Below, in pieces: positions 4,034-20,705 of a stretch of DNA of 64,000 nt. How positions within the stretch are numbered: the first letter of the stretch is position 1; the number at the start of each line of letters is the position of its first letter. The notes beneath the pieces were generated by a model. It saw only the letters and a program-made list of their open reading frames with translations. It did not search any database and had not been told where the DNA came from. This DNA comes from a virus: positions 32,001 to 96,000 of IMG/VR virus record IMGVR_UViG_3300035034_002798; one strand, given 5' to 3'. A program made the translations under genes and the position numbers.

Positions 4034-4079
4034 ATTGTTACCTCCTTATAATAAAATTAATTGGAACAATTTATATAAC

Positions 4080-4134
4080 CCACACGATTAAGGGGCGTCA
4101 AGTGGTTTTCTTGACGTCCCGCGATGAAGTGTGG
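4080..4134. repeat. Conserved intergenic hairpin element, copy 1 (GTCAA-N9-TTGAC)
   Basis: ccacac...ggggcGTCAAgtggttttcTTGACgtccc...gtgtgg. Confidence 0.85.
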
Positions 4135-4140
4135 TAGAAC

Positions 4141-4962
4141 TTATTCTAAAAAAGGTAATGCTTGTTCACCATATAATAGAGCATTCTTAACACGCTCATT
4201 TATAATCTCTTCCGCCATATCAACAATAACGCCTCTTATGCTTGTATATTCACCTATAAGAAGCTCGTTACATCTTAAAAGAGAAGGATCTTCTAACTCG
4301 TTTTCCTTGATGACCTGATAAAGATTTTCGTGAGTTATGGCATTCTGTGCCTCATTCCAGGAGGCATCTCTAACAGCATCTTCATCTTTTGCAAGATCAC
4401 CATCTTCTAAGTCTTCTCTTATGATGTTGACAACCTTATCAACAAGCTGGTTTGTCAGATTCTTATACTTATCAATACCTGTTATAACCCATTCAAAGTC
4501 TTCTCTTATGGATATTTCAATCTTGGCATTGCCGGCATAAACTATATACATATCTTTTTCTACTGACTCTATGCTTACTGATGTTATCTCTTCAAGATCA
4601 GCTGTTAACTGCTCGTTATCTACAACATCACCATCTTTATAGTTATCAACCACATAATCAAAAATACTTTCATGAAACTTAACATCGTCTGATACTAAGA
4701 TATCATCACTCCCTTTCGTTTTCTCTATCTCTTCAATCATCGTCCCACTTCCTTCTTCAGAAGATATAAGCAGTGCAACATTAGCAAATTTCATAGAATA
4801 AGTAGTTTTAATTGCAGTACTTAATATAACGTTGGTCTCTATCTCAAGGCCTGAACGTTCAAGTTTGTTCTTAAGCTCGAAATCATTTATATAATCACCA
4901 ACACTGTATTCGGAATCAATATAGTCGTACACATCATCATAAAGTTTTTCATCTTTTTCCAT
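4141..4962 (-). CDS. Highly acidic hypothetical protein
   Basis: 273-aa ORF with SD. Confidence 0.75.
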   Translation of the reverse strand: MEKDEKLYDDVYDYIDSEYSVGDYINDFELKNKLERSGLEIETNVILSTAIKTTYSMKFANVALLISSEEGSGTMIEEIEKTKGSDDILVSDDVKFHESIFDYVVDNYKDGDVVDNEQLTADLEEITSVSIESVEKDMYIVYAGNAKIEISIREDFEWVITGIDKYKNLTNQLVDKVVNIIREDLEDGDLAKDEDAVRDASWNEAQNAITHENLYQVIKENELEDPSLLRCNELLIGEYTSIRGVIVDMAEEIINERVKNALLYGEQALPFLE

Positions 4963-5336
4963 TATTTCTCCTCCTCTGCTGGGGTCATATACCCCTCTTT
5001 AAGTAAAATCTGACCTCGTTCTACTCCTTCAACCTCTCGCCCCGAAGGTCCACTGTCCATCCAACTTAATAGAATACTTACAGTATCCTTCTTTTTGGGA
5101 TAGGCGCTACAGATATTATCTATTAATTCTTCTAATTCTTTATCATCCATCACTATTTTTCTAGGATCAACATCCACCTTACCTTCTGGATAGTCATTAT
5201 CTTCTCTATAAAACTTAAGTATCTTATTAAAAAGAGAAATTAATACTTTAGCACTAAAATCTCTTGGATCTTCTGTAATTTCTATCCCTTCGGATAATTC
5301 TTCGAAACTATAACTTTGAATAGACTTATCAACCAT
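4962..5336 (-). CDS. Hypothetical protein
   Basis: 124-aa ORF, AAGGAGGT SD. Confidence 0.7.
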   Translation of the reverse strand: MVDKSIQSYSFEELSEGIEITEDPRDFSAKVLISLFNKILKFYREDNDYPEGKVDVDPRKIVMDDKELEELIDNICSAYPKKKDTVSILLSWMDSGPSGREVEGVERGQILLKEGYMTPAEEEK

Positions 5337-5347
5337 AAGATACCTCC

Positions 5348-5539
5348 TTATATGTCCTTTAATTCTAAAAATCTAATTATAACTGCTCTCTGGTACTTAT
5401 CGATAACACCTTTACTGACTAAGGACTGGAGTTCTTCTCTACATTGATATTTACTTACTGGTTCTGCAAAGTATGAACCATAATGATAACCGACAAACAT
5501 ACAGAGAGCGCCAAAGGCAATGAAAAATAATACGATCAT
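5348..5539 (-). CDS. Small membrane protein
   Basis: N-terminal hydrophobic segment. Confidence 0.6.
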   Translation of the reverse strand: MIVLFFIAFGALCMFVGYHYGSYFAEPVSKYQCREELQSLVSKGVIDKYQRAVIIRFLELKDI

Positions 5540-5550
5540 AATAACACTCC

Positions 5551-6465
5551 CTAACTTGCTTTCTTGCTGTTGATTGCCTTATAGGTTGTGTACTTAGACT
5601 TACCGATTTTGTATCCCTTTTCTCTTAAGTCGCCTTTATTACCATATTTACTGTTTCTTTTATAATATGTTTCATATTCTAGTTTATCTTCATTTAATTC
5701 CCACCAGCCTTTGATAATGTTAATAGCTTTAGGGGAATAATAAGTCATTTGACCTATGTTGTCGCCACCAAATACTATCTTTACATATTCATCTTCATAG
5801 GGTGCCGACTCATCGCTTCTAATTCCTATATGCTTGGTAACTTTACCGATAAGTGCTGAGTGCAGTCTGTCATTTGATGATGTTAAGTTTAACTTTAAAG
5901 CTATCTTAGCAGCATTCAGATAACCTTCTGGTACTTTTTTAGAGGTAATATCATCAACTTTATTATTGATATCTGCTATCTGTTTTTGCTGACGCTGTTG
6001 TTCCTTTTTTATTTCCATCTGTCTTTTTATATTATTTTCCATATTATCCAAGACATCTCTCATTAGATCTATTCTTGCCAGCCCAGAATTTCTTATGCTT
6101 ACAAAACCAGTTCTTCTCAATTCTTTGATCACATTTCTCACGAATCGCCTAAATTCCTTGGCCTTTGGTTGACTTGAATTAATAGTTACCTCAATTACTC
6201 CATCCTCAGTGAAGACCCTGGTATCTTGGGTGCCTCCACTAGGGGTAGTCAAAGCGACTACCCCTGAATATTCTTCTTTTTTTAAATAAGGATTTCTTTT
6301 TAATATCTTACTTATTGACTGAACCGGGTTTGCATATTCTAAAACCTCACCTAACTGTTTTGTTGTCATAAAAATATCATCTGAATTATCATTTTTATAG
6401 AAATCACACTCTATACCGGCAAACTTTTCTTCGCGTACCTTCTGTAAATCTATAACTTCTCCCAT
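5551..6465 (-). CDS. Bro-N domain antirepressor-like DNA-binding protein
   Basis: LTTPSGGTQDTRVFTEDGV...SSQPKAKEFRRFV...IKELRRTG, typical Bro-N. Confidence 0.85.
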   Translation of the reverse strand: MGEVIDLQKVREEKFAGIECDFYKNDNSDDIFMTTKQLGEVLEYANPVQSISKILKRNPYLKKEEYSGVVALTTPSGGTQDTRVFTEDGVIEVTINSSQPKAKEFRRFVRNVIKELRRTGFVSIRNSGLARIDLMRDVLDNMENNIKRQMEIKKEQQRQQKQIADINNKVDDITSKKVPEGYLNAAKIALKLNLTSSNDRLHSALIGKVTKHIGIRSDESAPYEDEYVKIVFGGDNIGQMTYYSPKAINIIKGWWELNEDKLEYETYYKRNSKYGNKGDLREKGYKIGKSKYTTYKAINSKKAS

Positions 6466-6592
6466 TTATAATTCCTCCTCAGTATTTTCCGACCAACAGA
6501 TACAATTGCTATTAGATTTAGTACTCATCAAACCGCTCCAGCACCATTCATCAATCTTTCTATCTAGATTGGCACCAAAGGAATCACAGTTT

Positions 6593-6826
6593 TTACATAT
6601 TCTCTTCGTTTTCATCATCTTGATCATCCTCACTCCTGGCTTCTGCTTTGCCGAGTTCATACATCTTTTCTAAAAGTTCCATTGATTTATCATATATATC
6701 AGAATAGGCTAAATAGTCTATATCACCTACGGAATTAAGTCCGTGCAGGTAATAATCTCCCATATCTGCTTTAATCTTTTCATTTTCTGGTGCCTTACTG
6801 CTTATTCCCAGCCTCCCATAATACAC
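6593..6826 (-). CDS. Hypothetical protein
   Basis: GGAGGTG SD. Confidence 0.6.
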   Translation of the reverse strand: MYYGRLGISSKAPENEKIKADMGDYYLHGLNSVGDIDYLAYSDIYDKSMELLEKMYELGKAEARSEDDQDDENEENM

Positions 6827-6831
6827 ACCTC

Positions 6832-7110
6832 CTATTTGTCGTTATCTCCAAAATATTCAAGAATATTAAGCGGCGGATAAGATGGTAAAGGATTGTCAGT
6901 TAAAACTTTATTAGTGTCAGGATCGAATTCATATATTCTACGACACTTATTATTAGTACACTGAGCATAAATCTGAATTGTCCTACCTACATACTTTCTA
7001 CGACGCGGTGTCTCCTCTGGTTCACCATTATTTTTTACATCAAATTCAAGCATCTCATCAATGTGTTCATATACTCTCAAGTCTGAACAACATACAGGAC
7101 ATTCCAACAT
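6832..7110 (-). CDS. Zn-ribbon protein
   Basis: CPVC...CTNNKC. Confidence 0.7.
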   Translation of the reverse strand: MLECPVCCSDLRVYEHIDEMLEFDVKNNGEPEETPRRRKYVGRTIQIYAQCTNNKCRRIYEFDPDTNKVLTDNPLPSYPPLNILEYFGDNDK

Positions 7111-7114
7111 ATTA

Positions 7115-7373
7115 TTACCCCCTTATAGACATACTGCCCGTTATTCTAACGAGTTCTTCTTCTGAAATGTGATCTACCATACTAACAAAGTCTTTCATAT
7201 TGGCCATTACTGGGTAAAACTTTTCTTCTCCAGTGCTTTCTTTTTTTTGCCTTAACGCATAATTCTCCATCAATAGACATATATAGAACTGTTCCGTTCA
7301 ACTCGACACTGTTTTTTAGCTGTCTCCTACTTAAATATTTAAAAACGATACTAGCTTTTTGAAGTTTAGTCAC
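7115..7373 (-). pseudogene. Hypothetical gene with apparent frameshift in an A8 run
   Basis: Removing one base at 7241-7248 extends the ORF to a stop at 7115, just before the next gene. Confidence 0.55.
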
Positions 7374-7606
7374 TTCTGCCTCCTAATTTAATCGTTGTAA
7401 GTAATCATTACAGTATGTTCTGTCCCCTCATAAGGGATCAGATACGATTGATACTGAATATCTAAATAGTCGTGAGTTGTTAGAAATTCTCCAACCTCTT
7501 CTTCGAATTCCTTAATTGGCCTACTTCCTCGTTCTATAATTTTTATTCTTTTCATCTACACCCCTCCTTAAATAAGAAAACCATCTCGATATGAGATGGC
7601 TATAAA

Positions 7607-7954
7607 TTATGCAGCTTCCTCAACTACAGTATCTTCTTCTGGTTTTTCTTCTGTCTCCTCGACCTCTTCTGTCTCCTCGACCTCTTCTAGTTCCTCAATC
7701 TCATTCACATATTCCTGCTCTCGACCAATTTCTTTTTTCCTTTTGATCATACCAAGAATGGTATCTTTAGTTACTGTCTTTTCAATCTCGATTCTTTCGA
7801 ATTCAAAGATGCTTTTTACCGAGATGGTATCTTTAATTTCATCTTCTTTAATCTTAAACTTTTCGATAAAATTATCTTTGGCCTCATCTTTATCAACTCC
7901 GTAAATTGAAGACTTATATCCTGGTTTGCTGCATTTAACGTTATATTTTGGCAT
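7607..7954 (-). CDS. Hypothetical protein with Glu-rich tail
   Basis: SD present; EEVEET repeats. Confidence 0.7.
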   Translation of the reverse strand: MPKYNVKCSKPGYKSSIYGVDKDEAKDNFIEKFKIKEDEIKDTISVKSIFEFERIEIEKTVTKDTILGMIKRKKEIGREQEYVNEIEELEEVEETEEVEETEEKPEEDTVVEEAA

Positions 7955-7964
7955 AAACTCACTC

Positions 7965-9245
7965 CTAACCTTTAATGACTGCTCTAGTTTTCATCTTATC
8001 TATTGGTTTTATTAAATCACTTTGCTGATCTATTACATTATGGATATCTTTATAAGCTCCCTTATATTCTTCAGTGATATCCTGTTTATTTTCTTTACCC
8101 AGGACTATGTTGTTAGCCTTGAGGTCTTCAATAACCTCTTGAACAGTGAATTCTTCTCGGGCTGCTGTTCTGGTATGTGTTCTACCTGCTCCGTGACTAC
8201 AGCTTTTAAAAGAGTCTTCATTGCCTAATCCCTCACAAATATAACTATAAGTACTCATTGAACCGGGTATAGGGATTATTTCTCCTTTTCTAGCTCTTAC
8301 CGCACCTTTACGGTGCACCATATAATTCTTTCTATCTATATTTTCATACGCTGCATAATTGTGATGGACATTCACATCAGTTTCAACATCATATCCATCA
8401 AAATCAGTATATTTAGTAATAGATTTTAATAATTTCTTTTCTGCTAACTTCATTATTTCTTCTCTATTAATCTCTGCAATTTCAAGAGCGAAGTTCATCC
8501 ATTTTAAGTAATCCTGACCTTCTTCAGAGTATAAAGGTAAAAAGGGTAGATTAACATTATCTGATAAAACATCAACATACCACTTCTTATTAAGTTTTTT
8601 AGCAAGATTACTAAAGTGCTTGTTTACCTTAGCTCCCACATTGCGGCTGCCGGTGTGAAGCATTATCCCAAGTTTTCCGTCTTTATTTTCTTGCAATTCC
8701 AGAAAATGGTTGCCGCCCCCAAGAGTTCCAACAACTTCAAAAGATTCTTTAACTGCATCTTCTAGGGGTGTGTTTTCTATTGCACCCGGGCCACCATCAA
8801 AGTCGTGAATTGCATTAAGTATTCTCATATTATCTTTATTTAACTCTGGATCTTTATGTTCAAACCCTGTAGGAAGGTCACGCATAATAGAACCTACAAG
8901 TTGTTGAGCAAGACTGCCAGAACCGGTCTTAACATCTAAGACTTCTATAGGTAGATTGGTTTGCTTAAAAGCAACGCCGCAGCCTATGTCACTAGACACA
9001 GCGGCAGGTATAATCACATCTTCAGTAGCAATAACACCACCAACAGGCATCTTAAAGCCGGTAGCGTGACAATCTGCCATTAATGCTATATGAGATTTAG
9101 CAAATGGTAAATCAGCTATAGCAAATGCTTCTTCCAGAGTAGTATCTTCTATCTGCATACTTCTTTCAAGCCAGACTTTTATGTCGACTCCTCTTTCATT
9201 TCTTATATTAAACATTCTAGGCGCTCCTCTCTTGTGTTCCTGCAA
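7965..9245 (-). CDS. rtcB: RtcB RNA ligase (3'-phosphate/5'-OH)
   Basis: SDIGCG, GTLGGGNHFLE, LHTGSR, VHHNYA, HRKGA, SCSHGAGR, AYKDI; start may be ATG at 9215. Confidence 0.95.
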   Translation of the reverse strand: MQEHKRGAPRMFNIRNERGVDIKVWLERSMQIEDTTLEEAFAIADLPFAKSHIALMADCHATGFKMPVGGVIATEDVIIPAAVSSDIGCGVAFKQTNLPIEVLDVKTGSGSLAQQLVGSIMRDLPTGFEHKDPELNKDNMRILNAIHDFDGGPGAIENTPLEDAVKESFEVVGTLGGGNHFLELQENKDGKLGIMLHTGSRNVGAKVNKHFSNLAKKLNKKWYVDVLSDNVNLPFLPLYSEEGQDYLKWMNFALEIAEINREEIMKLAEKKLLKSITKYTDFDGYDVETDVNVHHNYAAYENIDRKNYMVHRKGAVRARKGEIIPIPGSMSTYSYICEGLGNEDSFKSCSHGAGRTHTRTAAREEFTVQEVIEDLKANNIVLGKENKQDITEEYKGAYKDIHNVIDQQSDLIKPIDKMKTRAVIKG

Positions 9246-9705
9246 ATTCTTCGCGTGCCTGAAGATGAATTCTTAAATCCATCAGGTGCTTACCGAGATG
9301 ATTCTTACCCTCTTTATCGGTATTGGTGGCATTACCCCAATAGTCATCTCCCCAAAAATTAGTTTCTTCTAGATAAGCATCTCCAGTATCTAAAAGTCTT
9401 TGTGTGAGCTCGGGGTTTTGAGTAAATTTCTCGTAAAGCCCCTTCTTCATAACATCATGCTTTAAACCATCATCCCAGTCATCTCTTAATTTTACCTGTC
9501 TACCAATTTTTTTAGCTTCTCCAGGGCTGTCAAGATTTGAGATATACTTTCTTTTATTTAAGTCAAGAGTTTTCATTGCCTGGAAGAAATGTTCGTTTGT
9601 GGGGTAATAGATACCTCTAAACTCAAAACCGTATTCACTAAAATTGCTTAAAAAATTATATGGGCCCTCAAAACCTTCTACTTTAATATCACTAATATGA
9701 ATCAC
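9217..9705 (-). CDS. NADAR (YbiA/DarG1-like) family protein
   Basis: FLSNF, YPTNEHFFQAMK, KFTQN, LLDTG, DDYWG, GKNHLGKHLM. Confidence 0.93.
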   Translation of the reverse strand: MIHISDIKVEGFEGPYNFLSNFSEYGFEFRGIYYPTNEHFFQAMKTLDLNKRKYISNLDSPGEAKKIGRQVKLRDDWDDGLKHDVMKKGLYEKFTQNPELTQRLLDTGDAYLEETNFWGDDYWGNATNTDKEGKNHLGKHLMDLRIHLQAREEFAGTQERSA

Positions 9706-9708
9706 TCC

Positions 9709-10137
9709 TTAGAATGGTACTTTTACTTCTCTAAATAAATGGTTTTCTTTCTGCCTTTCTACAAATTTATCTATTTTTCTCATAGTTAGGTGTTCCATTT
9801 CTCGCGGGGACAATCGACTTGTGAATTTACATTCTGGATAGTTAGTACAACCCCAAAATCTCTGGTCATCTCTTTTATTGATTTTAGGTACTAGTTCACC
9901 ATCCTCACAACTTGGGCAGGTGTGATCGGTAAATACTTTTAAGTTGTAAAATGTTATAATATAGTCTTTTATTAGTTCCTGTCTTTTATCAACCATATTT
10001 ATACCAGAGTCTAGAACCACTTCTGCACCGCACTTGGGACAACGTGGTATATAATCTTCTTCTGAAGTCCCTATCCAAAACTTTTCCTCACAAGAAGGGC
10101 AATCATATTCATAAACGACCTGTTTATCTGATTTCAT
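9709..10137 (-). CDS. Protein with Zn ribbon and topoisomerase C4-type Zn finger
   Basis: CPSC...CPKC; CPSC...FWGCTNYPECKFT. Confidence 0.8.
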   Translation of the reverse strand: MKSDKQVVYEYDCPSCEEKFWIGTSEEDYIPRCPKCGAEVVLDSGINMVDKRQELIKDYIITFYNLKVFTDHTCPSCEDGELVPKINKRDDQRFWGCTNYPECKFTSRLSPREMEHLTMRKIDKFVERQKENHLFREVKVPF

Positions 10138-10247
10138 ATAGGCCCTCCTTTTCTGTAATTCAATAATGTAATATCAGTATATCATTTAGTAATACAAAAA
10201 TCAAATGCTAAAATAAGGGGGCGGGAAGCCCCCAGTATTAGAGTTTA

Positions 10248-10712
10248 TTAAAAAGGTACATCCTTGTCATTACCATTGTTATAGTTTTGAGCCTGGCTGG
10301 CGTTCTGTCTCTGGTTAGGTGCAACCTGTTGCTGATTTCTGTATTGCTGTTGCTGGCCATTGTTCTGCTGATACTGATTGTTCTGGTTGTTACCGTTATT
10401 CTTATTAGGTGAATCTAAAAACTTCACGTTATCAGCCACAAACTCGTGACCGTATTCTTTCTCGCCATTCTTTTCAGTTACATAAGAACGATAACTACAC
10501 TCTACGGCAACTAAACGGCCTTTGCTGAGGTGTTTTGCACAAATCTCTCCAAGACCGTTCCAAGCTGAGATAGGAGGATAGTCAACAGGTCTGTCACCAT
10601 TATCGTCGCTGTAATTTCTTTCAACAGCCAAAGTCATCAAGGTCTTATTGCGTCCGTTTACAGTAAATACGTTAGGGTCCCTTACTAATCTTCCCACAAA
10701 TGTTGTACTCAT
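10248..10712 (-). CDS. ssb: Single-stranded DNA-binding protein
   Basis: VGRLVRDP, LAVER, LSKGRLVAV, VADNVKFLD; Q/N-rich linker and DVPF tail. Confidence 0.95.
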   Translation of the reverse strand: MSTTFVGRLVRDPNVFTVNGRNKTLMTLAVERNYSDDNGDRPVDYPPISAWNGLGEICAKHLSKGRLVAVECSYRSYVTEKNGEKEYGHEFVADNVKFLDSPNKNNGNNQNNQYQQNNGQQQQYRNQQQVAPNQRQNASQAQNYNNGNDKDVPF

Positions 10713-10754
10713 AAAATTCCACTCTCCTTAAAGTTTTTTAGTTTAATGTTATGC

Positions 10755-11186
10755 CTATACAGCCTGTCTTTTAAGCTTAGACTCCTCATAGTAATCAATA
10801 AACATATCTTTATTAGATTCTGACATAAAAAAGCTTTCAATTTCCTCACAAATACTTATTATATTAAGGTGACTGCCTGCCACACTTGATTTAGACATTC
10901 CTGAGACAACAGGAGAGGAATCTATATCCTCTAAAATTCCCTCGTGAACCTCTTTTTCAACAGCGATAAACTTAAGTACAGTGTTTATAAAATCCCTACC
11001 AGTATCCTTAAAATTGTGATTATTATACACTTCATAATAGTTATCGAGTATCATCTTATTCTCAACTAGAAACTCATAGAAGTTCCTAAGCTGTAATAAT
11101 CTGATATCCTGTATCTTTTGACCAGAAGTCTCATCTAACATTTGATTGTAATCAGATAAAACTGAATCTATAATATCTCCAATCAT
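10755..11186 (-). CDS. Hypothetical protein
   Basis: GGAGGTG SD. Confidence 0.7.
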   Translation of the reverse strand: MIGDIIDSVLSDYNQMLDETSGQKIQDIRLLQLRNFYEFLVENKMILDNYYEVYNNHNFKDTGRDFINTVLKFIAVEKEVHEGILEDIDSSPVVSGMSKSSVAGSHLNIISICEEIESFFMSESNKDMFIDYYEESKLKRQAV

Positions 11187-11255
11187 CTAATTCACCTCCT
11201 TTAGAGTAAATTAATTGTAAAAAAGAAAAATGTTTATTTAATCTAATTTAAACGA

Positions 11256-11311
11256 GCTGGAATAACCAAGACTGTCAAATGGTTTTCTTGACAGTTGCCG
11301 GTTATGGAAGC
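11256..11311. repeat. Conserved intergenic hairpin element, copy 2
   Basis: ataaccaagactGTCAAatggttttcTTGACagttgccggttat. Confidence 0.85.
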
Positions 11312-11411
11312 ATTCTTTTGAACTTATTGGAGAAAGTCAGTGAAAATACTAAAAAGCGATTTAAACTTATTTAGCTTAGTCAGTAATTTATGTTTTTTAT
11401 CATCTTTTTCT

Positions 11412-11891
11412 CTATACAGCGCAATCACTCCTAATATCGAATTTTATTTCTGGATAATCTCTTTTAATTGAGGTATAATTTTTGGTACTTACTACAAGAT
11501 GGTCAATAATCGGAATATTAAGCAGAATACCTGCTTCTATTAAATTCTCAGTAACTCTGATATCATCATCACTTGGCGTACTGCGGTCACTTGTGTGGTT
11601 ATGCGCTAGAACAATTGCCGTTGCATTCATCAAAATAGCGGCCTGAAAAACACTTGAGGTATCAAATATTGCTTTATTGATAGAACCTCTTGAAATTTCC
11701 ATATAACCTATGACATTATTGTTATTATTTAGTCCTACAGCAACCATTATTTCTTTTGGCCGAAGGTCTAATTCGACCTCTCTTACCAGAAAATCATAAA
11801 AACTTGTGGGATCAGTTACCTTATATTCAGCAGACATTTCTTTTTCCTTGACTGGTTTCAATCTCAAGTCATATTCTTTTATCACTCTCAT
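11412..11891 (-). CDS. radC: RadC-like JAB domain protein
   Basis: ISRGSI, LAHNHTS...PSDDD...T..L..AG..L.I..IDH. Confidence 0.9.
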   Translation of the reverse strand: MRVIKEYDLRLKPVKEKEMSAEYKVTDPTSFYDFLVREVELDLRPKEIMVAVGLNNNNNVIGYMEISRGSINKAIFDTSSVFQAAILMNATAIVLAHNHTSDRSTPSDDDIRVTENLIEAGILLNIPIIDHLVVSTKNYTSIKRDYPEIKFDIRSDCAV

Positions 11892-11903
11892 ATTTTCTCC
11901 TTT

Positions 11904-12248: not shown

Positions 12249-12309
12249 CTTCTTTGTAGTATGCAGTGTGTTGCCAAAATAACATATTATTACCCCCTGT
12301 ATTGTCTGT

Positions 12310-12440: not shown

Positions 12441-12452
12441 TTTCCTCACCTC

Positions 12453-12914: not shown

Positions 12915-12949
12915 CTCCTTAAAATATTTTATTAATCTACCCTAAATAA

Positions 12950-13007
12950 ACCGAAAACGACCAAGACTGTCAAATGGTTTTCTTGACAGTAGCCGGCCGT
13001 TGTAGGT
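12950..13007. repeat. Conserved intergenic hairpin element, copy 3
   Basis: aacgaccaagactGTCAAatggttttcTTGACagtagccggccgtt. Confidence 0.85.
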
Positions 13008-13013
13008 AGGTCT

Positions 13014-15041
13014 TTACCAACTTGTATATGAAAGCTCCTTGTTTTCCGTCCATTCATTGACAAAATCTAACGCGTCTTCTGGTGGTTTATTGTTGTGCTT
13101 TGATTTGACCTGCACAACATCATCTCCTCTTACTTCAACTGTTGCGACTCTCTCGTTGTCTTTAGTTCTTAAAAAGTAAATCTTACATGAACCCCGAGCC
13201 AGCATCTTATCGTATGTGCCAACGCAATGACCCATTTCCATTCCCTCTTTGCTCAACTCTTCTAGTGATTGAGGAGTTTTAATCACATAATGGTCACCAT
13301 CAAACTCTAGTTTCTTGTTTTCTTCATATCTTTCATTATAGGCTTTGTTTAATCTTTTATTTTTGTTCTTGTTATAAAGGTCGGTTAAATTGTCATGAAT
13401 ATCTACAAGTTCAGATACAGAATAAGAAATTATGTCTAAATTCAAATCCATACCTTCTTGTATTAAGTCCTCATATATTCTATATGAATCTCTATATAGA
13501 TACATATCGTTATCAGAAAAGATTTTGTGTAATTTACTCTTAATCATTGTCATATCACCATTGTAATATCTAAGTAAATCTTTAAATAACTGTTTATTAT
13601 AAGTATCATAAGTAGATTCAAATACGTCATCATCTTCGATATCATCGTCTAATATAAATTTACGAAAAAACTTAATAAACTTTTTCATTTGTTTAGAATT
13701 AATTATATCTCTACCATTATCGAGACCAAACAATTTATAGATTTCAAGAGAAGTAAGGAAACCATCATAACTTCTAATATAGTAGTTTTTAGTTATCTCT
13801 CTCAAAAGAGGTTTAGTTATCTCTCTGTTAAAAATAGTAGATAGTACTTTTTCTGGTGCTCCTGTAAAATCACCTCTGGGGTAGTTCTCAAGCATTGAAA
13901 GTACTATAAAATCAATAAGAAGTTTGTTATCTACATTATCGTATATAAACTGCAGTAGATCCTTTAACTCTGGATTTCTATTTATTACAGCTAAATAGTG
14001 AGGTAATTTTCTTATTATAGTTTGATTGATTTTCTCCATAGACGGAATCTTTCTAAAAGGTTCAACTACCTCAGTTTTGGCTGATTTGTCAGTAAAGACA
14101 GAATCAATAGCACTTTCTATGAATTCTACTTTAAACTTTTTCCTAGCAAATGCTCTATATAATTGAATCTTTTCGGTATCACCAACATAAGTACTATGAT
14201 GTGTTTTAAGGGCACGAACTCTGAATTGCTGATATTCGTGATTTTTAAATAGATAGAAACTTCGTCCGCTTTTTAAATTTAATACTATTTTGTTGTGATA
14301 TTTTATTTCAAAGTATCTTTTACCACTCTTTATATTATAGCCAGATTCCAATCTCTTAGATGACACCTTAATTTTACTACCATCTTCGAAAAAATCTTGA
14401 TAAGCTTCAACGCTTTGTGGTGTAGGGTTCTGTACCAATTGCTTAAAGTTAGAATTCAAGCACTCTGAACAGACTGTCTTTATACGGTGTCGCTTCAAAT
14501 CGCCATCCATTAAAACTCCGTGTATTTTTACCCCCCGGGTTTTAACCTCATCTTCATGTCCACAAGAACAAAAATAGTGGGACTCCATTAATCTTTCAGA
14601 AACATTATAATGCTTATATGATATAGAGTAAGTTCTATCCTTTGTATCTGATAGCCTAACATCGAACGATAAAAGCTTTTTTATAAATAATTCATACAAA
14701 TTTTTTCTAAAGTTAATTCTTATTTCTTTTTCACTGTTATAATAGTGATTAACTTCAGCATTATCTTCTTTAAAACGGTCTAGATAAGTCATAAACCTCT
14801 TGAATACGTCAAATATTTTTCTTGGTTTTATCTTCTTTATTATTTCAATAAGTTCTACCTCTTGAGATACGAGACTTATTTTTTTATAAATGTCAGTGCT
14901 GCTGTCTAAACCGCTCAGAAGAGATAACATTGTAGCTTTTGTTACTTTTTTGATGTTATTTTTGCAATTGTCTTTATCACAATAATGCATTAGAGCCTCA
15001 CCAAAACCCTCTTCGCCAATATAAAGCGCTTGAATGTCCAT
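13014..15041 (-). CDS. PcfJ domain-containing protein
   Basis: C-terminal PQSLEELSKEGMEMGHCVGTY...IYFLR...ATVEV...VQVKSKHN. Confidence 0.85.
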   Translation of the reverse strand: MDIQALYIGEEGFGEALMHYCDKDNCKNNIKKVTKATMLSLLSGLDSSTDIYKKISLVSQEVELIEIIKKIKPRKIFDVFKRFMTYLDRFKEDNAEVNHYYNSEKEIRINFRKNLYELFIKKLLSFDVRLSDTKDRTYSISYKHYNVSERLMESHYFCSCGHEDEVKTRGVKIHGVLMDGDLKRHRIKTVCSECLNSNFKQLVQNPTPQSVEAYQDFFEDGSKIKVSSKRLESGYNIKSGKRYFEIKYHNKIVLNLKSGRSFYLFKNHEYQQFRVRALKTHHSTYVGDTEKIQLYRAFARKKFKVEFIESAIDSVFTDKSAKTEVVEPFRKIPSMEKINQTIIRKLPHYLAVINRNPELKDLLQFIYDNVDNKLLIDFIVLSMLENYPRGDFTGAPEKVLSTIFNREITKPLLREITKNYYIRSYDGFLTSLEIYKLFGLDNGRDIINSKQMKKFIKFFRKFILDDDIEDDDVFESTYDTYNKQLFKDLLRYYNGDMTMIKSKLHKIFSDNDMYLYRDSYRIYEDLIQEGMDLNLDIISYSVSELVDIHDNLTDLYNKNKNKRLNKAYNERYEENKKLEFDGDHYVIKTPQSLEELSKEGMEMGHCVGTYDKMLARGSCKIYFLRTKDNERVATVEVRGDDVVQVKSKHNNKPPEDALDFVNEWTENKELSYTSW

Positions 15042-15190
15042 TGTTTAAGCACTCCTTTCATTTTCGTATAAGAATTCCTGTTTGATATTTTCTAATCATA
15101 CTATCCTGCTTTTATATTATTAAAGAAACATGATTGTTTAGTATTAAAATATTAAGTTATTATAATAATTTAATATTTTAGTAACAAAGT

Positions 15191-15216
15191 AAACCCCGCT
15201 AATTAAAGCGGGGTTC
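15191..15216. terminator. Intrinsic terminator-like hairpin
   Basis: aaccccgct-aattaa-agcggggtt with A/T flanks, after YopX. Confidence 0.6.
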
Positions 15217-15225
15217 TTTTATATA

Positions 15226-15609
15226 TTATTTAATTATTTTTACAGCATCATTAACCGTAAAACATTTTAGATATAGTTTTGTTCTATTTATTGAACTGTC
15301 AATATCATAAACTGGCTCATTAAATTTAACATCAAAACAACCATCGCTAAAAATAATCTTACCTTCTATCCAATTGCCCTTGTGATTTAAAGCAAGCGTG
15401 TTTATTTTAACTTCATCTTTATTGTATATTCTGTTATCCCTTTTATCCTTCATGCCTGTGTATTGACCCACAGTTTCGGGAATAACTTCATTTTCTTTTG
15501 TGTCTATATATACTTTGCCGTCACGACCGTGTATTAGATCACCATATACATAATGACCAAGCTCTTTGTGTTTGCCCTTGAAATGTATTTCATCTATTTC
15601 CATTTTCAT
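15226..15609 (-). CDS. YopX family protein
   Basis: FKGK...YVYGDL...VIPETVGQYTGMKDK...IY..D. Confidence 0.9.
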   Translation of the reverse strand: MKMEIDEIHFKGKHKELGHYVYGDLIHGRDGKVYIDTKENEVIPETVGQYTGMKDKRDNRIYNKDEVKINTLALNHKGNWIEGKIIFSDGCFDVKFNEPVYDIDSSINRTKLYLKCFTVNDAVKIIK

Positions 15610-15811
15610 TTATAATCACCCTTTGCATTGTTTAGAAGAACTAACATTTTTTATTATTTGATTTATTCTTTCTTTATATATTTTTATTCTTTTTTCTGAA
15701 TCAGGTTTTTTTCTGATAGGTGGGTATAAACATATCAAAACCAGATAAAAAACTACTGAAGGTTATCATTAACATCATCTCCTAATAATTTTATTTAATT
15801 CAACTATCACA

Positions 15812-15870
15812 TACCTGTGTGAGCAAGTTCGTCAAACGGTCTTCTTGACGAGCACAGCTCTAAACAGGTA
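15812..15870. repeat. Conserved intergenic hairpin element, copy 4
   Basis: tacctgt..gagcaagttcGTCAAacggtcttcTTGACgagcacagctc..acaggta. Confidence 0.85.
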
Positions 15871-15872
15871 GA

Positions 15873-16505
15873 TTAGTTTTTGACCTTTTTGCGGATACTA
15901 TTTAAGTTTAAATTCCATACAGGGATGCGATCCTGTACTTTTTCTGATAGGTACTGTGGTCCATCTCTGAAAATAGCAATAAAAACTGTGTTATTTGTTT
16001 TAACATTGATAATTGAGTTAAATTCGTGCTCTCTATGCCGAAGGCCGTCTATATAGTCAGCTCTATCTGGGTCTTCGATAGTTTCGCTGGCCCAGGCATA
16101 CTGGGCATTTGATATATTAGAGTTTCTTAAAGCCTGCTTGGCGTCCTCAACAATCTCATCTGATCTTGAAGCATGTTCAACTATAAATGCCTTATCATAA
16201 GCTTCTACCTTTTCCAGTTTATTTCTGATATACATATTTTCATCGGAAATGGTGCGCGGCAGAACAACAACAAACTTGGCATTCATATTCATTAAAGCTT
16301 CCATAAAGTGTATAGACTGACTAATAGCTGGAAGAGCAAACACATAACCCTGATTGTGCAACTGTCCCAACTTAGACATAATAGGCTTTCTAATTAATTG
16401 ATACTCCCTGTAAGAGATACGGGGCAGGTCGATTACACACCAGTTAGAATATTTTCTTGTTAAGGAACCTAGTCCATCATTTGTTGAATACTGAGTATAA
16501 GCCAT
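15873..16505 (-). CDS. Hypothetical protein
   Basis: 210-aa ORF, AAGGAGG SD. Confidence 0.75.
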   Translation of the reverse strand: MAYTQYSTNDGLGSLTRKYSNWCVIDLPRISYREYQLIRKPIMSKLGQLHNQGYVFALPAISQSIHFMEALMNMNAKFVVVLPRTISDENMYIRNKLEKVEAYDKAFIVEHASRSDEIVEDAKQALRNSNISNAQYAWASETIEDPDRADYIDGLRHREHEFNSIINVKTNNTVFIAIFRDGPQYLSEKVQDRIPVWNLNLNSIRKKVKN

Positions 16506-16569
16506 TTTAATTCCTCCTTATAATATTTGCCCCCGAGTAGATAAAACCCGAGGGCGCAGACAAGGTAAA

Positions 16570-17421
16570 CTATGCAGCCATCAACTTAACTGTGTTCTCT
16601 AAATAAAACTTAAAGTCGCTCCAGTGATAACCTGGTAGAGCAAGTAACTCCCTTAAGTCTCTATCAACAACTAATCTCATATCAACCAACTGTTTAAGAT
16701 ACTTTGTTTTATCTAACTCCTCAGAATGAACTGTGTCTCCCTTATAGGTAAAGGTAAACTTTAAGACGTCTCTTAACTCATCATGCATTAAGTTAACATC
16801 AACTACGTTTTCATCTTTATTGAGAATTTCATCTTCCTGTATAAGTTCAACAATTTTACTTAGCTCTTCAACTAATGCATTTTCATCATTCATATAAGGC
16901 TCAAGCTCGGGTTCGGAGTAGAGCTGATATAATGAATCTTGACCATCAATGAAAGACTGAATTAAATCAGATAACTTAATCTCTTTTGCAGTAGCGATAG
17001 TTTTAAATGAAATCTGTTCTTCTGATTCTGAGATTACCTTTTCTAAGATGTCTTTATGATGCTGGACGGTAAATAATTCCTCGTTCTCCTCAACAAATGA
17101 ATCATCATAAACTGATTTAGATAGCTCTAAAGACTGTTCTGATACCTTTATATCGATTGTTTCATCTTCACTGAGACCAGGATTAAAGTTACTAAGACTT
17201 ACTTTATAACTATTTCCATCCTCTGTTATAAGTGTCTTACCAATCTGATTTTCATTAGTAAGCAATAAAAGCATAGGAACCATATCAAATCCGCCATAAA
17301 CACCAACAGAATCTTCAGCCATCTCTTCAGGTAAAAGACCACTCTCTTTATTTGTCTTAATTGCGTCCATCCAACCTTCAAAAAACTCTTTTACATTAAC
17401 ATTCTTTATCATAATTATCAT
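16570..17421 (-). CDS. Acidic hypothetical protein
   Basis: 283-aa ORF with SD. Confidence 0.75.
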   Translation of the reverse strand: MIIMIKNVNVKEFFEGWMDAIKTNKESGLLPEEMAEDSVGVYGGFDMVPMLLLLTNENQIGKTLITEDGNSYKVSLSNFNPGLSEDETIDIKVSEQSLELSKSVYDDSFVEENEELFTVQHHKDILEKVISESEEQISFKTIATAKEIKLSDLIQSFIDGQDSLYQLYSEPELEPYMNDENALVEELSKIVELIQEDEILNKDENVVDVNLMHDELRDVLKFTFTYKGDTVHSEELDKTKYLKQLVDMRLVVDRDLRELLALPGYHWSDFKFYLENTVKLMAA

Positions 17422-17436
17422 CTCCTATAAGTATTT

Positions 17437-17778
17437 TTAGTTACTAAAAGCTCTTCTCTTCTTTTCAGCTATCGCTTTTTCAGTGAGTTCATAAACAGGT
17501 GCAACAACATATCCACTCGTGATTTCATCGATTCTTTCATCTTTGATAACTTCAGCCTTTATCAACGCTTTTGCCATCCCTTCATTCTCGCTCCAATTCT
17601 TGATAGCGACCTGGTGACCGGGAAGGTTGACAAGATTGACAGTTGCCGTTGTGAAAGGCATACCTTCTTCTACGGTTGTGAGAGTTATTGCGACGTTATC
17701 GTTTTCTACATAGTGACTGAAATTGACATCACAAAGCTCTCCATGATAATCCACAACTATTTCGGACATAATTAACAA
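17437..17778 (-). CDS. DUF4313-like hypothetical protein
   Basis: Y..NDNVAI.L...EGMPFTTATVNL...AIKNWSENEG. Confidence 0.65.
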   Translation of the reverse strand: MLIMSEIVVDYHGELCDVNFSHYVENDNVAITLTTVEEGMPFTTATVNLVNLPGHQVAIKNWSENEGMAKALIKAEVIKDERIDEITSGYVVAPVYELTEKAIAEKKRRAFSN

Positions 17779-17817
17779 CTCCTTTATAAGATAGTTAAAT
17801 TAATCTAACTTTAACAA

Positions 17818-17876
17818 ACCCTCGCGAGCAAGCCTGTCAAATGATCTTCTTGACAGGCGCCGCGAAGTCGAAGGGT
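17818..17876. repeat. Conserved intergenic hairpin element, copy 5
   Basis: accct..gcaagcctGTCAAatgatcttcTTGACaggcgcc..agggt. Confidence 0.85.
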
Positions 17877-17886
17877 AGAACTAGAT

Positions 17887-18591
17887 TTAGCTGGCGTTTT
17901 GAAATTCTTCGGGAGGTCTTAAGTCTGGTGGAACGGCATGTATTAGCTCTCCATTTATGATATAACCTTCGGTGCAGGATGGGTTATCAAATACTAAATA
18001 CTGTTCATCATTGTATCTAGCAAGTGTCCAGCTCCTGTGCTCAATAGAATACATGACGCGGCGGCAGTGGTCAGAATTATAATCAAACTCTAAGTGACCA
18101 AACCCTATATTAAACTCCTTTGGTGGCCACTGTTCATTCTCGTTTATCACCTTAGCCATATACTCAGCCACTTCCTTTATCTCAAAGTCTATATAGTCAA
18201 GTAAGTCCTTTTCATTAGGACCCTGAACAAAGTCTAAAAAGGCTTCACTCTTCCAGTCACCATTCTCTGTGTCGAAGACCATCAACTTCTTTGGTGTTTC
18301 CATAGTATATCTGGCAATAAGTGATGCAGTACCTGTCAAAGGACTAGAAATACTGCCTACTAGAATAACCTGTGTCGAATAATCTATTAACTGAATAATA
18401 TAATCTTTGTCACTACCATCTGGCTGGTGACTATCATTGAAATTAGCATAGATACTATCTATTACGTCTGATTGGATTTCGGGGACCACAACCTTGCGAT
18501 CACCTTTTTGTCCTAAATTGTTCAAAATACCCTTACAATAATTAATAATCTTGTCTGATTTACCCATTGGGAACACTATAACTCTTTCCAT
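17887..18591 (-). CDS. Hypothetical protein
   Basis: 234-aa ORF with SD. Confidence 0.75.
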   Translation of the reverse strand: MERVIVFPMGKSDKIINYCKGILNNLGQKGDRKVVVPEIQSDVIDSIYANFNDSHQPDGSDKDYIIQLIDYSTQVILVGSISSPLTGTASLIARYTMETPKKLMVFDTENGDWKSEAFLDFVQGPNEKDLLDYIDFEIKEVAEYMAKVINENEQWPPKEFNIGFGHLEFDYNSDHCRRVMYSIEHRSWTLARYNDEQYLVFDNPSCTEGYIINGELIHAVPPDLRPPEEFQNAS

Positions 18592-18683
18592 TTATATCCT
18601 TCCTTTCTTTATTTAGGAACTATTTAATGCCAACAAGGCCATTTTTAAGCAATTATTCGAAGTTTTTAACGTCATAACATGAT

Positions 18684-18738
18684 TTGGTTAGTATCGACTT
18701 GACAAAATGGGGGTTTTTGACGGTATTATATAAATAGA
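18684..18738 (+). promoter_or_regulatory. Conserved promoter motif, copy A (TTGACA-N19-TATTAT)
   Basis: TGGTTAG..cgacTTGACAaaa-N16-TATTATataaataga; matches copies at 28762 and 30799. Confidence 0.7.
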
Positions 18739-19090
18739 GCGTCACTTTTCTGGGAAAAGGACTTTGGTCTTAATTCTTAGGCCTTTCGAGTTCTGTGATT
18801 TGAAAGTCTCCAGAAAACACAACACTGACGCTTTAACGAATTTGATATCAGAACTAAAGACGTTACTTGAACTTAGTTAATCAGTTATTGAACGATTTAT
18901 TGACAACTACCTAAAATGGGAGAGGTGTACTAAGAGGAGTGTCCTCTCAGACTCTTACATTCAGGGATAAATCCCTAAAAACCCTGGACTCATTGTTAAA
19001 AAGGGAGGGCGCGCAATAGCAGGTACACAAAAGTAACATTCAGATAGAGATCCCTTCTTAGGTGAAACCCTCTCCCCTTTCAATTGCGAT
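18739..19090 (+). ncRNA. Candidate structured non-coding RNA
   Basis: No ORF of 60 aa or more; many nested complementary segments; starts right after the conserved promoter. Confidence 0.45.
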
Positions 19091-19319
19091 TGTTTTCCCC
19101 TGTCCCTTAACTATAATACCAGTGTATCATTTCTGTAATACATAATCAATAGTCATAACATAACTTATATACCTATCTCGTAATACAACCAAAAAGCCCG
19201 GCGCGGCAGGGAACATTATAACCATACTCTTGATTCTCCTTCTAATAGTGGTACTACTAACTCTACTAAGGATACTAAGGATACTAGCCAACTAGCCACT
19301 ACTAACTCACCCCCCAATA

Positions 19320-19430
19320 CTGCTTGCACTTGCACTTGTACCAGTAACTGTACCAGCACCTACACTTACACAATTGCTTACAATGTTACCAACACTTACA
19401 CTTGCGATTACATCTCCACTCACAATAATG
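19320..19430 (-). repeat. Hexamer-periodic array (inverted copy of the par centromere-like repeats)
   Basis: tgcacttgcacttgtaccagtaactgtaccagcacc... is the reverse complement of CAAGTG/CTGGTA-type units at 26.1-26.5 kb. Confidence 0.6.
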
Positions 19431-19623
19431 AATACAGACCAACCTGTTCCCTATTACACATCACTAAGAATACGACTGTCTCTCCCCGTCACACCTCACT
19501 ATTATTTAAGAGATGACTGTGACACGACACTTACTCTCCTTCGTATCGACTAATGTTGTCACTACCTATTCAATCACCTCATAACTAGATGTAACCACAA
19601 CTTATATAGATGAAAAGAACAAT

Positions 19624-19728
19624 TAATATAGGAGTAACTAAACCTGTAATATATGGGTAACTAGACCTGCTCCCTTAATATAGGGGTAACAATTAATATA
19701 TGGGTAACTAGTAATATAGGGGTAACTA
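19624..19728 (+). repeat. Five 17-bp iteron-like direct repeats TAATATAKGRGTAACWA
   Basis: Copies at 19624, 19647, 19676, 19694, 19712. Confidence 0.8.
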
Positions 19729-19850
19729 GACCTGCTCCCTCCGGCCTCGGCGAATCTTCCCCCTAATACGGCTATACGAGATTAGCACGCTAGAGGGTCA
19801 TATGAGCGAGACCAGAGTTGAGAGGCTTCAATATATAGCTTAGATGCTAA

Positions 19851-20321
19851 CTAGTCCTTAAGCAGGCGCTCACGGACGAGAGAGAGTATATATCCCATCT
19901 TCGCTTTGTCCCTGTAGGTTTCCTGTGGGAATAGTTTCTTGCCATCATAGTCTATATTAATCGTGAAGCTAGTTTTGGTATCTCTTCTAGGGTTATAAAT
20001 CGAACCTTGTACGCGTGCCAGGCCTGAGGCAGGGTGTCTCCCTAGGGCGTCGGCAAGTTTAGACTGGTCTATATTAACACTTTCGAGCTTAATATCCTCC
20101 TGAAAGGCTCTACCTGAGCTGAAAGCTAGGTACCAGGGTTTATTTTCGGGCTTAGAGGCCACTTTGGTGCATTCATCTAAGAACACACGCATAGTATTAC
20201 CCTCACTTGTAGTAACGGGTAGTACATAGTGACCAAAGGTGCTATTATAGAACGGATTACCTTCTACTTTATATTTACCTCTCCAGCCTTCTACCTTCAC
20301 TGTATCGTTTTTAGTAATCAT
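19851..20321 (-). CDS. Hypothetical protein
   Basis: 156-aa ORF with SD. Confidence 0.7.
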   Translation of the reverse strand: MITKNDTVKVEGWRGKYKVEGNPFYNSTFGHYVLPVTTSEGNTMRVFLDECTKVASKPENKPWYLAFSSGRAFQEDIKLESVNIDQSKLADALGRHPASGLARVQGSIYNPRRDTKTSFTINIDYDGKKLFPQETYRDKAKMGYILSLVRERLLKD

Positions 20322-20579
20322 CTATTTACTCTCCTCTCTGCTTGCCTGAGCCTGGATTACTTCATAGTCATTATATACTCCTTGTTGGCCAAGAGAACGA
20401 ACACAACTGCCATCGTCGTAGAAAGTATACGACTCAACTACCGGGCCATCATCATCTCTGGCGATATCTAAATTAAGGCTGATATCATCACACTGGATAT
20501 TCTGAATCTTTTTCTGTTCCATAACCTCTGACATAACACTAATTTGTCTGTAACTTAACTCAAAATGCATATTAACCAC
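20322..20579 (-). CDS. Hypothetical protein
   Basis: AAGGAG SD; abuts next gene. Confidence 0.65.
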   Translation of the reverse strand: MVNMHFELSYRQISVMSEVMEQKKIQNIQCDDISLNLDIARDDDGPVVESYTFYDDGSCVRSLGQQGVYNDYEVIQAQASREESK

Positions 20580-20635
20580 TCCTTATATAGTATTTACTTA
20601 AAGACTAATAAACTGAACAACTAATAAATCTTACC

Positions 20636-20705
20636 CAATACGTATCCACGACCACCGCGGCGTGTCAAATGGGTTTCTTGACACGGTAGGACGGGCGTGA
20701 TATTG
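20636..20705. repeat. Conserved intergenic hairpin element, copy 6
   Basis: cacg..cgtGTCAAatgggtttcTTGACacg..cgtg. Confidence 0.85.

Follow-up and report, generated by a model that had tools for sequence, protein, structure and literature searches.

A family of covarying hairpins with an invariant top in the non-structural arm of an uncultured relative of Bacillus phage 0305phi8-36: a possible transcription-control signal

The DNA studied here, called the window below, is a stretch of 64,000 nucleotides covering positions 32,001 to 96,000 of the IMG/VR virus record IMGVR_UViG_3300035034_002798, and our subject is a family of long imperfect hairpins that recur between its genes, each built around a core of GTCAA, nine loop nucleotides and TTGAC. 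The record comes from a tailed phage, as judged from the terminase, portal and major head genes on its rightward arm. The leftward, non-structural arm, in which the hairpins lie, encodes DnaE, UvrD, DnaG, a beta clamp, RecA, and SNF2, RtcB, NADAR, macro, RadC, SSB, PcfJ-like, YopX and Bro-N proteins; the presence of ssb, radC, macrodomain, NADAR and rtcB genes on this arm had been proposed in an earlier reading of the letters alone (the original prediction) and is borne out by Pfam. The portal protein is 37-47% identical to those of the Bacillus phages 0305phi8-36, WH1, Edson and KLEB27-3 and of the Moorella phage MTATph1, which makes 0305phi8-36 (47% identity) the nearest cultured relative by this protein; relatives of the portal at 72% identity are short structural fragments only.

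The source record itself has an unusual form. The 170,948-bp contig is its own reverse complement with 0 mismatches, that is, a perfect palindrome of 2 x 85,474 bp whose centre (...CCATTTTATGATCATAAAATGG...) falls within the tail-gene region at window position 53474/53475 (contig 85474/85475), and it is almost certainly a fold-back assembly artefact. Its label of "inverted terminal repeat" and its completeness of 78% are therefore misleading, the window beyond 53474 mirrors earlier sequence, and the seemingly additional hairpins at contig 118-161 kb are mirror images that add no new sites. Taking the CheckV completeness of 78% as belonging to the doubled record, we infer a genome of about 219 kb, of which about 40% is in hand.

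The pattern GTCAA-N9-TTGAC occurs at six exact sites in the window, with cores beginning at 4097, 11274, 12969, 15831, 17836 and 20664, precisely where the original prediction had placed them. Only 0.05 sites are expected from dinucleotide-preserving shuffles, and none of 100 shuffles reaches six; with two mismatches allowed in the core, the count is at chance level (33 found, 32.9 expected). The asymmetric loop consensus RYGRKYTTC on the + strand, also part of that prediction, is correct for all six sites, and it is likewise true of all six that they share one orientation and lie in gaps between minus-strand (leftward) open reading frames (ORFs), upstream of a Shine-Dalgarno (SD) sequence of the AAGGAG type. 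Two further copies lie beyond the window, one at contig position 17342, where the loop ends in ...TTTTA, and one at contig position 10522, where the core is lengthened to 8 bp around a 3-nt loop, giving eight copies in the unique 85.5 kb. When the entire unique sequence was searched, filters off, with a covariance model built on the apical 47 nt, the seven typical copies scored 42-54 bits and no copy came up beyond those already described. All eight are co-oriented with the genes and all are in the non-structural arm, the structural arm of the unique 85.5 kb holding none.

Read in the sense of the genes, each hairpin belongs to a cassette of about 100 nt that runs from the stop codon of one gene through a three-tier imperfect hairpin of 55-60 nt, a T-rich box and an AT-rich leader to the ribosome-binding site (RBS) of the next gene. 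The hairpin begins 3-19 nt past the upstream stop codon in six copies, and six of the eight gaps are 99-134 nt long and essentially filled by hairpin, leader and SD sequence. The outer stem has 4-7 bp, the middle stem 2-5 bp and the inner stem 3-4 bp, with an internal loop between each stem and the next. The second of these loops, counted from the outside, reads C-UU-G on its 3' side in most copies, and the inner stem stacks directly on the invariant GUCAA/UUGAC; the apical loop has 9 nt, or 7 nt if a G-U pair closes it. In mRNA sense the three tiers comprise 17-21 pairs, or about two irregular helical turns. The 3' arm, counted from TTGACN to the hairpin base, is 16-18 nt long in all eight copies, and the 5' arm is 17-22 nt long. 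Directly at the base stands the T-rich box (TTTATT, TTTGTT, TTATAT and similar), which by direct reading is exactly TTNTTT in two copies and agrees with it at 5/6 positions in three more (5 of 8 copies together), and the leader beyond it is moderately conserved, often as TAGATTAAT.

Mean pairwise identity among the copies is 0.89 in the 19-nt core, 0.30 and 0.38 in the two arms, which is near random, and 0.43 in the 40 nt downstream. The lower stems, unlike as they are in sequence, are nonetheless paired: minimum free energy folds give the three-tier hairpin on both strands for every copy, with similar z-scores of -1.8 to -5.3 for the minus-strand RNA and -1.7 to -4.9 for the + strand DNA. When the 5' arm of one copy is joined to the 3' arm of another, the chimeras fold at -15.4 kcal/mol on the + strand, against -24.5 kcal/mol for the cognate hairpins, and at -14.9 against -22.6 kcal/mol on the minus strand (n=56 chimeras). 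The swap thus costs about 8-9 kcal/mol (Mann-Whitney p ~1e-4 for the 54 chimeras left when the pair formed by the copies at 11274 and 12969 is excluded). In a gap-free alignment of the apical 47 nt three inner-stem pairs are changed on both sides, and the covariation score of this alignment is matched by 0 of 500 column shuffles and by no slid register. Fold, arm swap and shuffle all support the covarying stems of the original prediction, and the covariation among the copies is clear, though it is that of paralogues within one genome.

The wobble pairs are split between the strands, as had been noted earlier. In mRNA sense the pair that closes the loop is G-U in five copies and G-C in a sixth, several outer-stem pairs are G-U as well, and A-C mismatches adjoin the core in two copies, the same positions being G-T on the + strand. 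On the + strand one outer stem has an A-C mismatch, and the inner stems are fully paired if G-T is allowed.

The six copies in the window are all on the minus strand, and their stems are given here in mRNA sense. The copy reached first by leftward transcription occupies 20647..20699 (core 20664-20682; 42.2 bits in the covariance model) and has stems CACG/CGTG (outer) and CGT/ACG (inner). Just upstream of it, in the same gap and on the minus strand, are two small GC hairpins with UUCG loops, at 20777-20789 (GACCCTTCGGGTC) and 20840-20852 (GGCCCTTCGGGCC). The next copy, at 17818..17876 (core 17836-17854; 48.4 bits), has stems ACCCT/AGGGT (outer), CGCG/CGCG (middle) and GCCT/AGGC (inner), and its cassette fills the gap 17779-17886. 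The copy at 15812..15870 (core 15831-15849; 47.6 bits) has stems TACCTGT/ACAGGTA (outer) and GAGC/GCTC (middle), begins 3 nt past the stop codon of a 210-aa gene and stands upstream of a small ORF and a YopX-like gene. Between a PcfJ-like and a macro-domain gene, in the gap 12915-13013, lies the copy at 12950..13007 (core 12969-12987; 53.6 bits), with the outer stem AACGGCC/GGTCGTT; its inner 33 nt are almost identical to those of the copy at 11256..11311 (core 11274-11292; 53.0 bits), and the outer stems of the two are unlike, the latter having ATAACC/GGTTAT (outer) and ACT/AGT (inner). In the order of leftward transcription this copy comes after radC and is followed by a 143-aa gene and then ssb. 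The last copy, at 4080..4134 (core 4097-4115; 46.6 bits), has stems CCACAC/GTGTGG (outer) and GGGAC/GCCCC (inner), and its cassette fills the gap 4034-4140 from the stop of a 273-aa gene to the start of a 93-aa gene. A sequence resembling the hairpin top (GTCAA, an A/C-rich loop and ATTT) is found at 18698-18721 on the minus strand (GTCAAAAACCCCCATTTTGTCAAG), in a non-coding gap of 369 nt (18592-18960); its 3' half is non-complementary and it has no covariance-model score, and either the decay of a former copy or chance may account for it.

The leftward arm also contains punctuation of an ordinary kind, in which a perfect GC stem with its T run comes before a promoter of the form TTGAnn-17-TGnTATACT. 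At 10176-10233 on the minus strand, for example, a perfect GC-rich terminator stem and its T run precede TTGATT-17-TATACT (10176-10204), which has TG upstream; the -10 sequence TGaTATACT recurs at contig 30.7-31.0 kb and 12.3-12.6 kb, and a stem at 15192-15216 is predicted as a terminator on both strands. Since these ordinary terminator and promoter units are of a different kind, the hairpin cassettes form a second, separate class of signal in the arm. They are alone in their gaps, with no TTGAnn-17-TGnTATACT promoter beside them, and ssb is among the genes that follow them.

Two other features of the arm may be recorded. One gene downstream of ssb, across the terminator and promoter gap 10138-10247, a gene at 9709-10137 on the minus strand encodes a stand-alone 142-aa protein with a C4 zinc ribbon of the topoisomerase I type (PF01396, E = 8.5e-15), which may be a single-strand-DNA-binding accessory factor. 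In a non-coding gap of 559 nt, five direct copies of an 18-nt unit (TTAATATAGGGGTAACTA, + strand) are spaced at 18-29 nt over 19623-19728, and a second set of three 25-nt repeats lies at 19358-19436; both sets look iteron-like and could serve as an origin of replication or as clustered sites for protein binding.

No relatives of the hairpin were found in the collections searched. In Rfam only tRNAs match at the gathering score, and the hairpins have no match even at E up to 1. The loop-specific core pattern has 12 single matches in IMG/VR, none with the extended fold, and a relaxed core has, among the matches listed, only single matches of chance type in the loci examined; the core together with CTTG has 31 single matches in a metagenome collection and 20 in the GTDB genomes, none of them a relative and none with the extended fold. 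Searches of IMG/VR with the PcfJ-like and RtcB proteins found no close locus; the PcfJ-like protein has no match at E up to 1e-20, and a 283-aa neighbour protein matches itself only. Within the data searched, then, the hairpin family is private to this phage.

Its nearest cultured relative has, however, a signal of comparable design, unrelated in sequence. Hardies et al. (2007) described a 21-bp motif at 14 noncoding sites in the non-structural arm of 0305phi8-36 and proposed it as a phage-specific middle promoter, with the YonO/RdRP-like polymerase gp99 as its possible reader in a genome that has no sigma factor (PMC2147016). We find CGTTCGCACG in 19 copies in 0305phi8-36, all on the gene strand of the non-structural arm, and in 0 copies in the present genome; these copies appear to be the published motif. 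In the 16 copies of the region 170-219 kb (EF583821.1 170000-218948) the flanks of the decamer are variable yet complementary, with a mean of 3.3 Watson-Crick pairs against 0.9 in arm-swapped chimeras. A T-rich tract follows the stem, with a peak of TAnnnT 12 nt past the loop hexamer, and the apparent excess of wobble pairs in mRNA sense is largely a by-product of this T-rich 3' flank. Most of the copies examined lie in intergenic gaps, directly past a stop codon and a few tens of nucleotides before the next RBS; one copy, by its position against the annotation, lies within ORF047. In three copies the RBS is within about 25 nt, too close for a separate conventional promoter to fit between. The hairpin that follows orf81 (e.g. 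198199-198208) bears the CGTTCGCACG top, and the 2007 paper cites a hairpin and oligo-T tract after orf81 as a transcription terminator (PMC2147016); if the two are the same, one motif has been taken both as a terminator and as a promoter candidate.

The two families thus have in common that they are dispersed, restricted to the gene strand and to the non-structural arm, and built with an invariant top, a covarying stem and a T-rich tail. They differ in that the top of the 0305phi8-36 motif, CGTTCGCACG, is unrelated, its stem has 5-7 bp and its loop 6 nt, and TG-TAnnnT stands 12 nt past the loop hexamer. Neither phage has the motif of the other, and what the two families share is the design and not the sequence; the function of the 0305phi8-36 motif is itself only predicted, in a paper where this motif is not presented as a hairpin (PMC2147016). 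In an SPbeta-like phage the region that holds the YonO promoter offers no comparison, since the start site cannot be placed from sequence alone; the promoter of YonO is stated to be undefined (PMC5467207).

What promoter boxes the cassettes offer can be read directly. The original prediction saw in the hairpins Frpo-like promoters of the leftward genes, and much of its geometry is correct: the + strand is indeed the template of the flanking genes, TTGAC does lie in the 3' arm, and the hairpin base falls where a -10 box would begin. The hexamers cited on the + strand (TAGAAC, TAGGTC, TAGATT and others) are present at spacers of 17-20 nt and start with TA in six of the eight copies, but A2 and T6 occur together in only two of the eight. 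The gene strand has a less variable spacer, of 16-18 nt, and at that distance no hexamer (0 of 8) has both A2 and T6, in agreement with the earlier statement that the minus-strand TTGAC has no convincing -10. A scan for consensus promoters reported nothing at any cassette.

The explanation that we tentatively favour, while granting that it may well prove wrong, is that the hairpins are a lineage-specific transcription-control signal, read in folded form through the top, that starts or gates transcription of the downstream cassette. Eight such cassettes would punctuate the replication, repair and accessory genes of the leftward arm of this uncultured 0305phi8-36 relative; a phage-specified factor would recognise the folded cassette, in DNA or in nascent RNA, by its invariant top, and the signal, which we take to correspond to the 21-bp motif proposed as a "phage-specific promoter" in 0305phi8-36, would then be either a promoter of the middle class or an attenuator controlled by a factor. 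An invariant top over freely covarying lower stems points to recognition of a folded strand by a sequence-specific reader, and the covarying stems leave the element unexplained by a purely duplex promoter or operator. The invariant 5-bp stem that spells TTGAC, the fixed 3' arm and the restriction to one arm of the genome are, in turn, not explained by a purely structural RNA; the fixed arm of 16-18 nt and the core equal to the -35 pentamer fit a promoter-like geometry. That each phage has its own top sequence is as expected if the signal co-evolves with its reader. A constitutive terminator, finally, would cut off ssb and other genes that have no other visible promoter.

Several observations weigh against this explanation. 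The covariation derives wholly from eight paralogous copies of one genome, with no element-bearing relatives, and the wobble pairs favour neither strand. A hairpin with a T-rich box immediately after it is the layout of an intrinsic or NusG/NusA-assisted terminator (PMC8060035) and would suit an mRNA processing stem equally. The two hairpin families differ widely in size, with about 20 paired positions here against 5-7 in 0305phi8-36, and may not be functional equivalents; the equation of the CGTTCGCACG copies with the 21-bp motif is, moreover, our own. In 40 kb of the non-structural arm of WH1 we find no comparable recurrent motif, and homologues of gp99 are absent from the other relatives and from the present fragment, so that a link between the hairpins and a special polymerase is conjecture only. 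A reader was not found: sigma-70 region 2, a YonO/RdRP-type polymerase and a gp99 homologue are all absent from the 85.5-kb fragment, the large orphan proteins encoded at the head of the arm suggested no candidate, and an Atlas look-up of two of them (435 aa and 390 aa) returned nothing usable. No T7-like polymerase is among the proteins scanned in general, no search having been aimed at that type and the fragment amounting to about 40% of the genome.

The foremost alternative, though a rather doubtful one, places the action in the polycistronic mRNA, where the hairpin would be a cleavage stem of the RNase III type or a protein-bound intercistronic site of processing or stability; cleavage would leave a protective 3' hairpin on the upstream message and give the downstream one a fresh leader with its RBS. 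The location of the hairpins suits this well, as they are intergenic, co-oriented with the genes and placed 3-19 nt past the stop codon in six copies, and so do their size and shape, with about 20 paired positions broken by internal loops and the conserved C-UU-G on the 3' side, amounting to the irregular stem of about two turns in a transcript that RNase III requires. The G-U pairs that close the loop and the z-scores of the RNA fold point the same way. There is also a precedent in the conserved RNase III sites of a Bacillus phage early region (Panganiban and Whiteley 1983, as cited in PMC4838370). Like the hairpins here, the RNase III sites in the early mRNAs of T7 and SP82/SPO1 are intergenic, irregular and broken by internal loops, and occur as several similar, co-oriented copies. 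Those of T7, however, are found in all temporal classes of transcript and are conserved at the internal loop and cleavage site and not at the apical stem-loop, whereas the element here is confined to one arm and is invariant at an apical stem and loop that RNase III does not need. The A-C mismatches beside the core, which become G-T on the other strand, speak against an RNA fold, the hairpins of 0305phi8-36 (5-7 bp) are too short for RNase III, and mRNA processing would reduce the -35-consensus pentamer and the fixed 3' arm to mere chance. A search of the genome fragment for RNase III was empty.

Unlikely, but of note, is the possibility that both the cassettes and the 0305phi8-36 motif are structure-specific promoters, in which a DNA hairpin, extruded by supercoiling or exposed on single strands during replication, would be recognised for transcription of the non-structural genes and its stem would supply the -35 box and the spacer. 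Such hairpin-promoter-like action is favoured by the identity of the invariant pentamer with the -35 consensus and by the position of the hairpin base, always one promoter-spacer length away. Phage N4 is a tailed phage whose early promoters are recognised as DNA hairpins by the virion RNA polymerase, an injected T7-like enzyme with SSB as its cofactor; the hairpins there have 5-7 bp stems and 3-nt loops and are present in three copies. As reportedly described by Glucksmann et al. in 1992 and Davydova et al. in 2007, these are phage promoters recognised as hairpins in which particular bases of loop and stem matter, and in this they resemble the reading proposed here. The hairpins of the present phage, at 55-60 nt with a loop of 7-9 nt, are nevertheless not of the N4 type, and the fragment has no polymerase of the YonO/RdRP type or like gp99.

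Still less likely, in our estimate, is a promoter of the host sigma-A, in which the template-strand hairpin, single-stranded or extruded under supercoiling, would provide the -35 and spacer as duplex and, at its base, the -10 as single strand, and start transcription leftwards. The invariant TTGAC paired within the stem, the fork-junction geometry at the hairpin base, T-A at the first two "-10" positions of the + strand hexamers in six of eight copies, the + strand inner stems fully paired with G-T and the z-scores of the DNA fold would all accord with it, as would the AT-rich flanks, the presence of ssb and of the zinc-ribbon protein in the same arm, and the N4 precedent for hairpin promoters in a tailed phage. 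Against it stand the scarcity of + strand hexamers with both A2 and T6, the spread of their spacers over 17-20 nt, the A-C mismatch in one + strand outer stem, and the energetic cost of extruding an imperfect palindrome of 55-60 nt with a 9-nt loop. We know of no single-stranded (entry) stage for tailed phages.

The Frpo and ssi elements are reportedly the single-stranded-DNA promoters of the leading regions of conjugative plasmids (the work of Masai and Arai in 1997). Here, as there, a template-strand hairpin rebuilds a -35 in its stem, and the neighbours include ssb and accessory or anti-defence-type genes. In Frpo, however, both boxes are part of the stem and the DNA arrives in the cell as a single strand, whereas the hairpins here belong to a tailed double-stranded DNA phage. 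An Frpo is defined as a stem-loop that rebuilds canonical -35 and -10 boxes (PMC9849209). In the cassettes TTGAC pairs with GTCAA in all eight copies, giving the duplex -35, but no canonical -10 is rebuilt at promoter spacing; as the -10 position lies beyond the base of the stem and is non-canonical, the hairpins do not belong to the Frpo class. Of the Frpo-like model of the original prediction, what stands is that the hairpins are real, dispersed, co-oriented and covarying, and what is missing is a canonical -10; the parallel in gene content (ssb, radC, PcfJ) we judge to be mere analogy.

Improbable, too, is a composite of the kind called PeSL, known from T4-type phages (Arbiol et al. 2010, PMC2839356; Comeau et al. 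2014, PMC4122927), in which a partial intrinsic terminator or attenuator of upstream transcription would be combined with a weak duplex promoter having its -35 in the 3' arm. Constraint on this -35 and on the A-tract upstream of it, together with the need of the other arm to pair with them, would then be all that keeps the top alike among the copies, which would serve also as recombination points. PeSLs, like our cassettes, combine a stem-loop, a promoter-like sequence and an SD sequence among non-essential or orphan genes of non-structural regions, and are possible points of recombination; the span of about 100 nt from stop to ATG, repeated in a non-structural region with stem-loop and SD sequence in six of the eight gaps here, is also theirs (PMC2839356, PMC4122927). 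The T-rich box directly after the stem would serve such a terminator, and most Bacillus subtilis terminators are aided by NusA or NusG and tolerate interrupted U tracts (PMC8060035), so that partial or NusA/NusG-assisted termination at the cassettes is possible. An unconstrained promoter spacer would account for the freely varying stems below the top, and the identical inner part of the copies at 11274 and 12969 suggests recent exchange. PeSLs differ, however, in having consensus sigma-70 -35 and -10 boxes after the stem-loop, and their promoter and terminator activities have been demonstrated; the scan found no such sigma-70-type boxes downstream of our stem-loops, where the only -35-like box is inside the hairpin, the gene strand has no usable -10 at 16-18 nt, and the stems covary under an invariant top. 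By direct count, U makes up about 5/10 of the positions after the stems, against about 7/10 in the clear terminators of this phage, and a terminator scan flags only one copy, and that weakly. Efficient termination would starve the downstream genes in the absence of another promoter, and the top of 0305phi8-36, which is not -35-like, would be left unexplained.

A DNA-level repeat with no role in expression, such as a mobile or recombinogenic palindrome (REP- or MITE-like, or an attC-like boundary) or a priming or nicking site, is very improbable: the copies do lie dispersed at junctions of functionally unrelated accessory genes, and two share an identical inner segment, but there are no terminal repeats or target duplications, integron attC sites have a conserved base and a variable top where the hairpin is the reverse, no integrase, transposase or recombinase is among the proteins scanned against Pfam and PHROGs, the other genomes searched have no copies, and the strict co-orientation with genes and the fixed RBS spacing point to expression. 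Four further ideas were set aside, namely an operator for a dimeric repressor (the covarying stems are unexplained), a mimic of the tRNA anticodon arm (no U33-like position), pairing of TCTACC with GGTAGA flanks (inconsistent across copies) and a second promoter CTTGnn-18/19-TAGATT (weak boxes and spacers that are too long).

Repeated stem-loop cassettes in the non-structural regions of phages are already known, from PeSLs, the RNase III sites of T7 and the hairpin promoters of N4. The combination found here, of a large three-tier covarying hairpin with a TTGAC-bearing invariant top, no canonical -10 and a parallel in design in 0305phi8-36, is new as far as we have found. For the 0305phi8-36 group of large Firmicute phages the sole proposal for transcription control has been the 21-bp motif, tied to a YonO/RdRP-like polymerase. 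That motif appears to be a covarying hairpin, and the presence in a distant uncultured relative of an independent and much larger hairpin family in the same genomic role suggests that the clade uses folded signals whose tops are private to each phage. If the cassettes are promoters, structure-specific initiation would extend beyond N4, this poorly studied clade becoming the second after N4 in which tailed phages are known to use hairpin promoters, and perhaps the first where the host sigma-A reads them in an Frpo-like fork-junction form; should they instead be regulated terminators or processing sites, lineage-specific RNA punctuation would gain a compact new example. In both cases the matter can be tested directly on a cultured phage.

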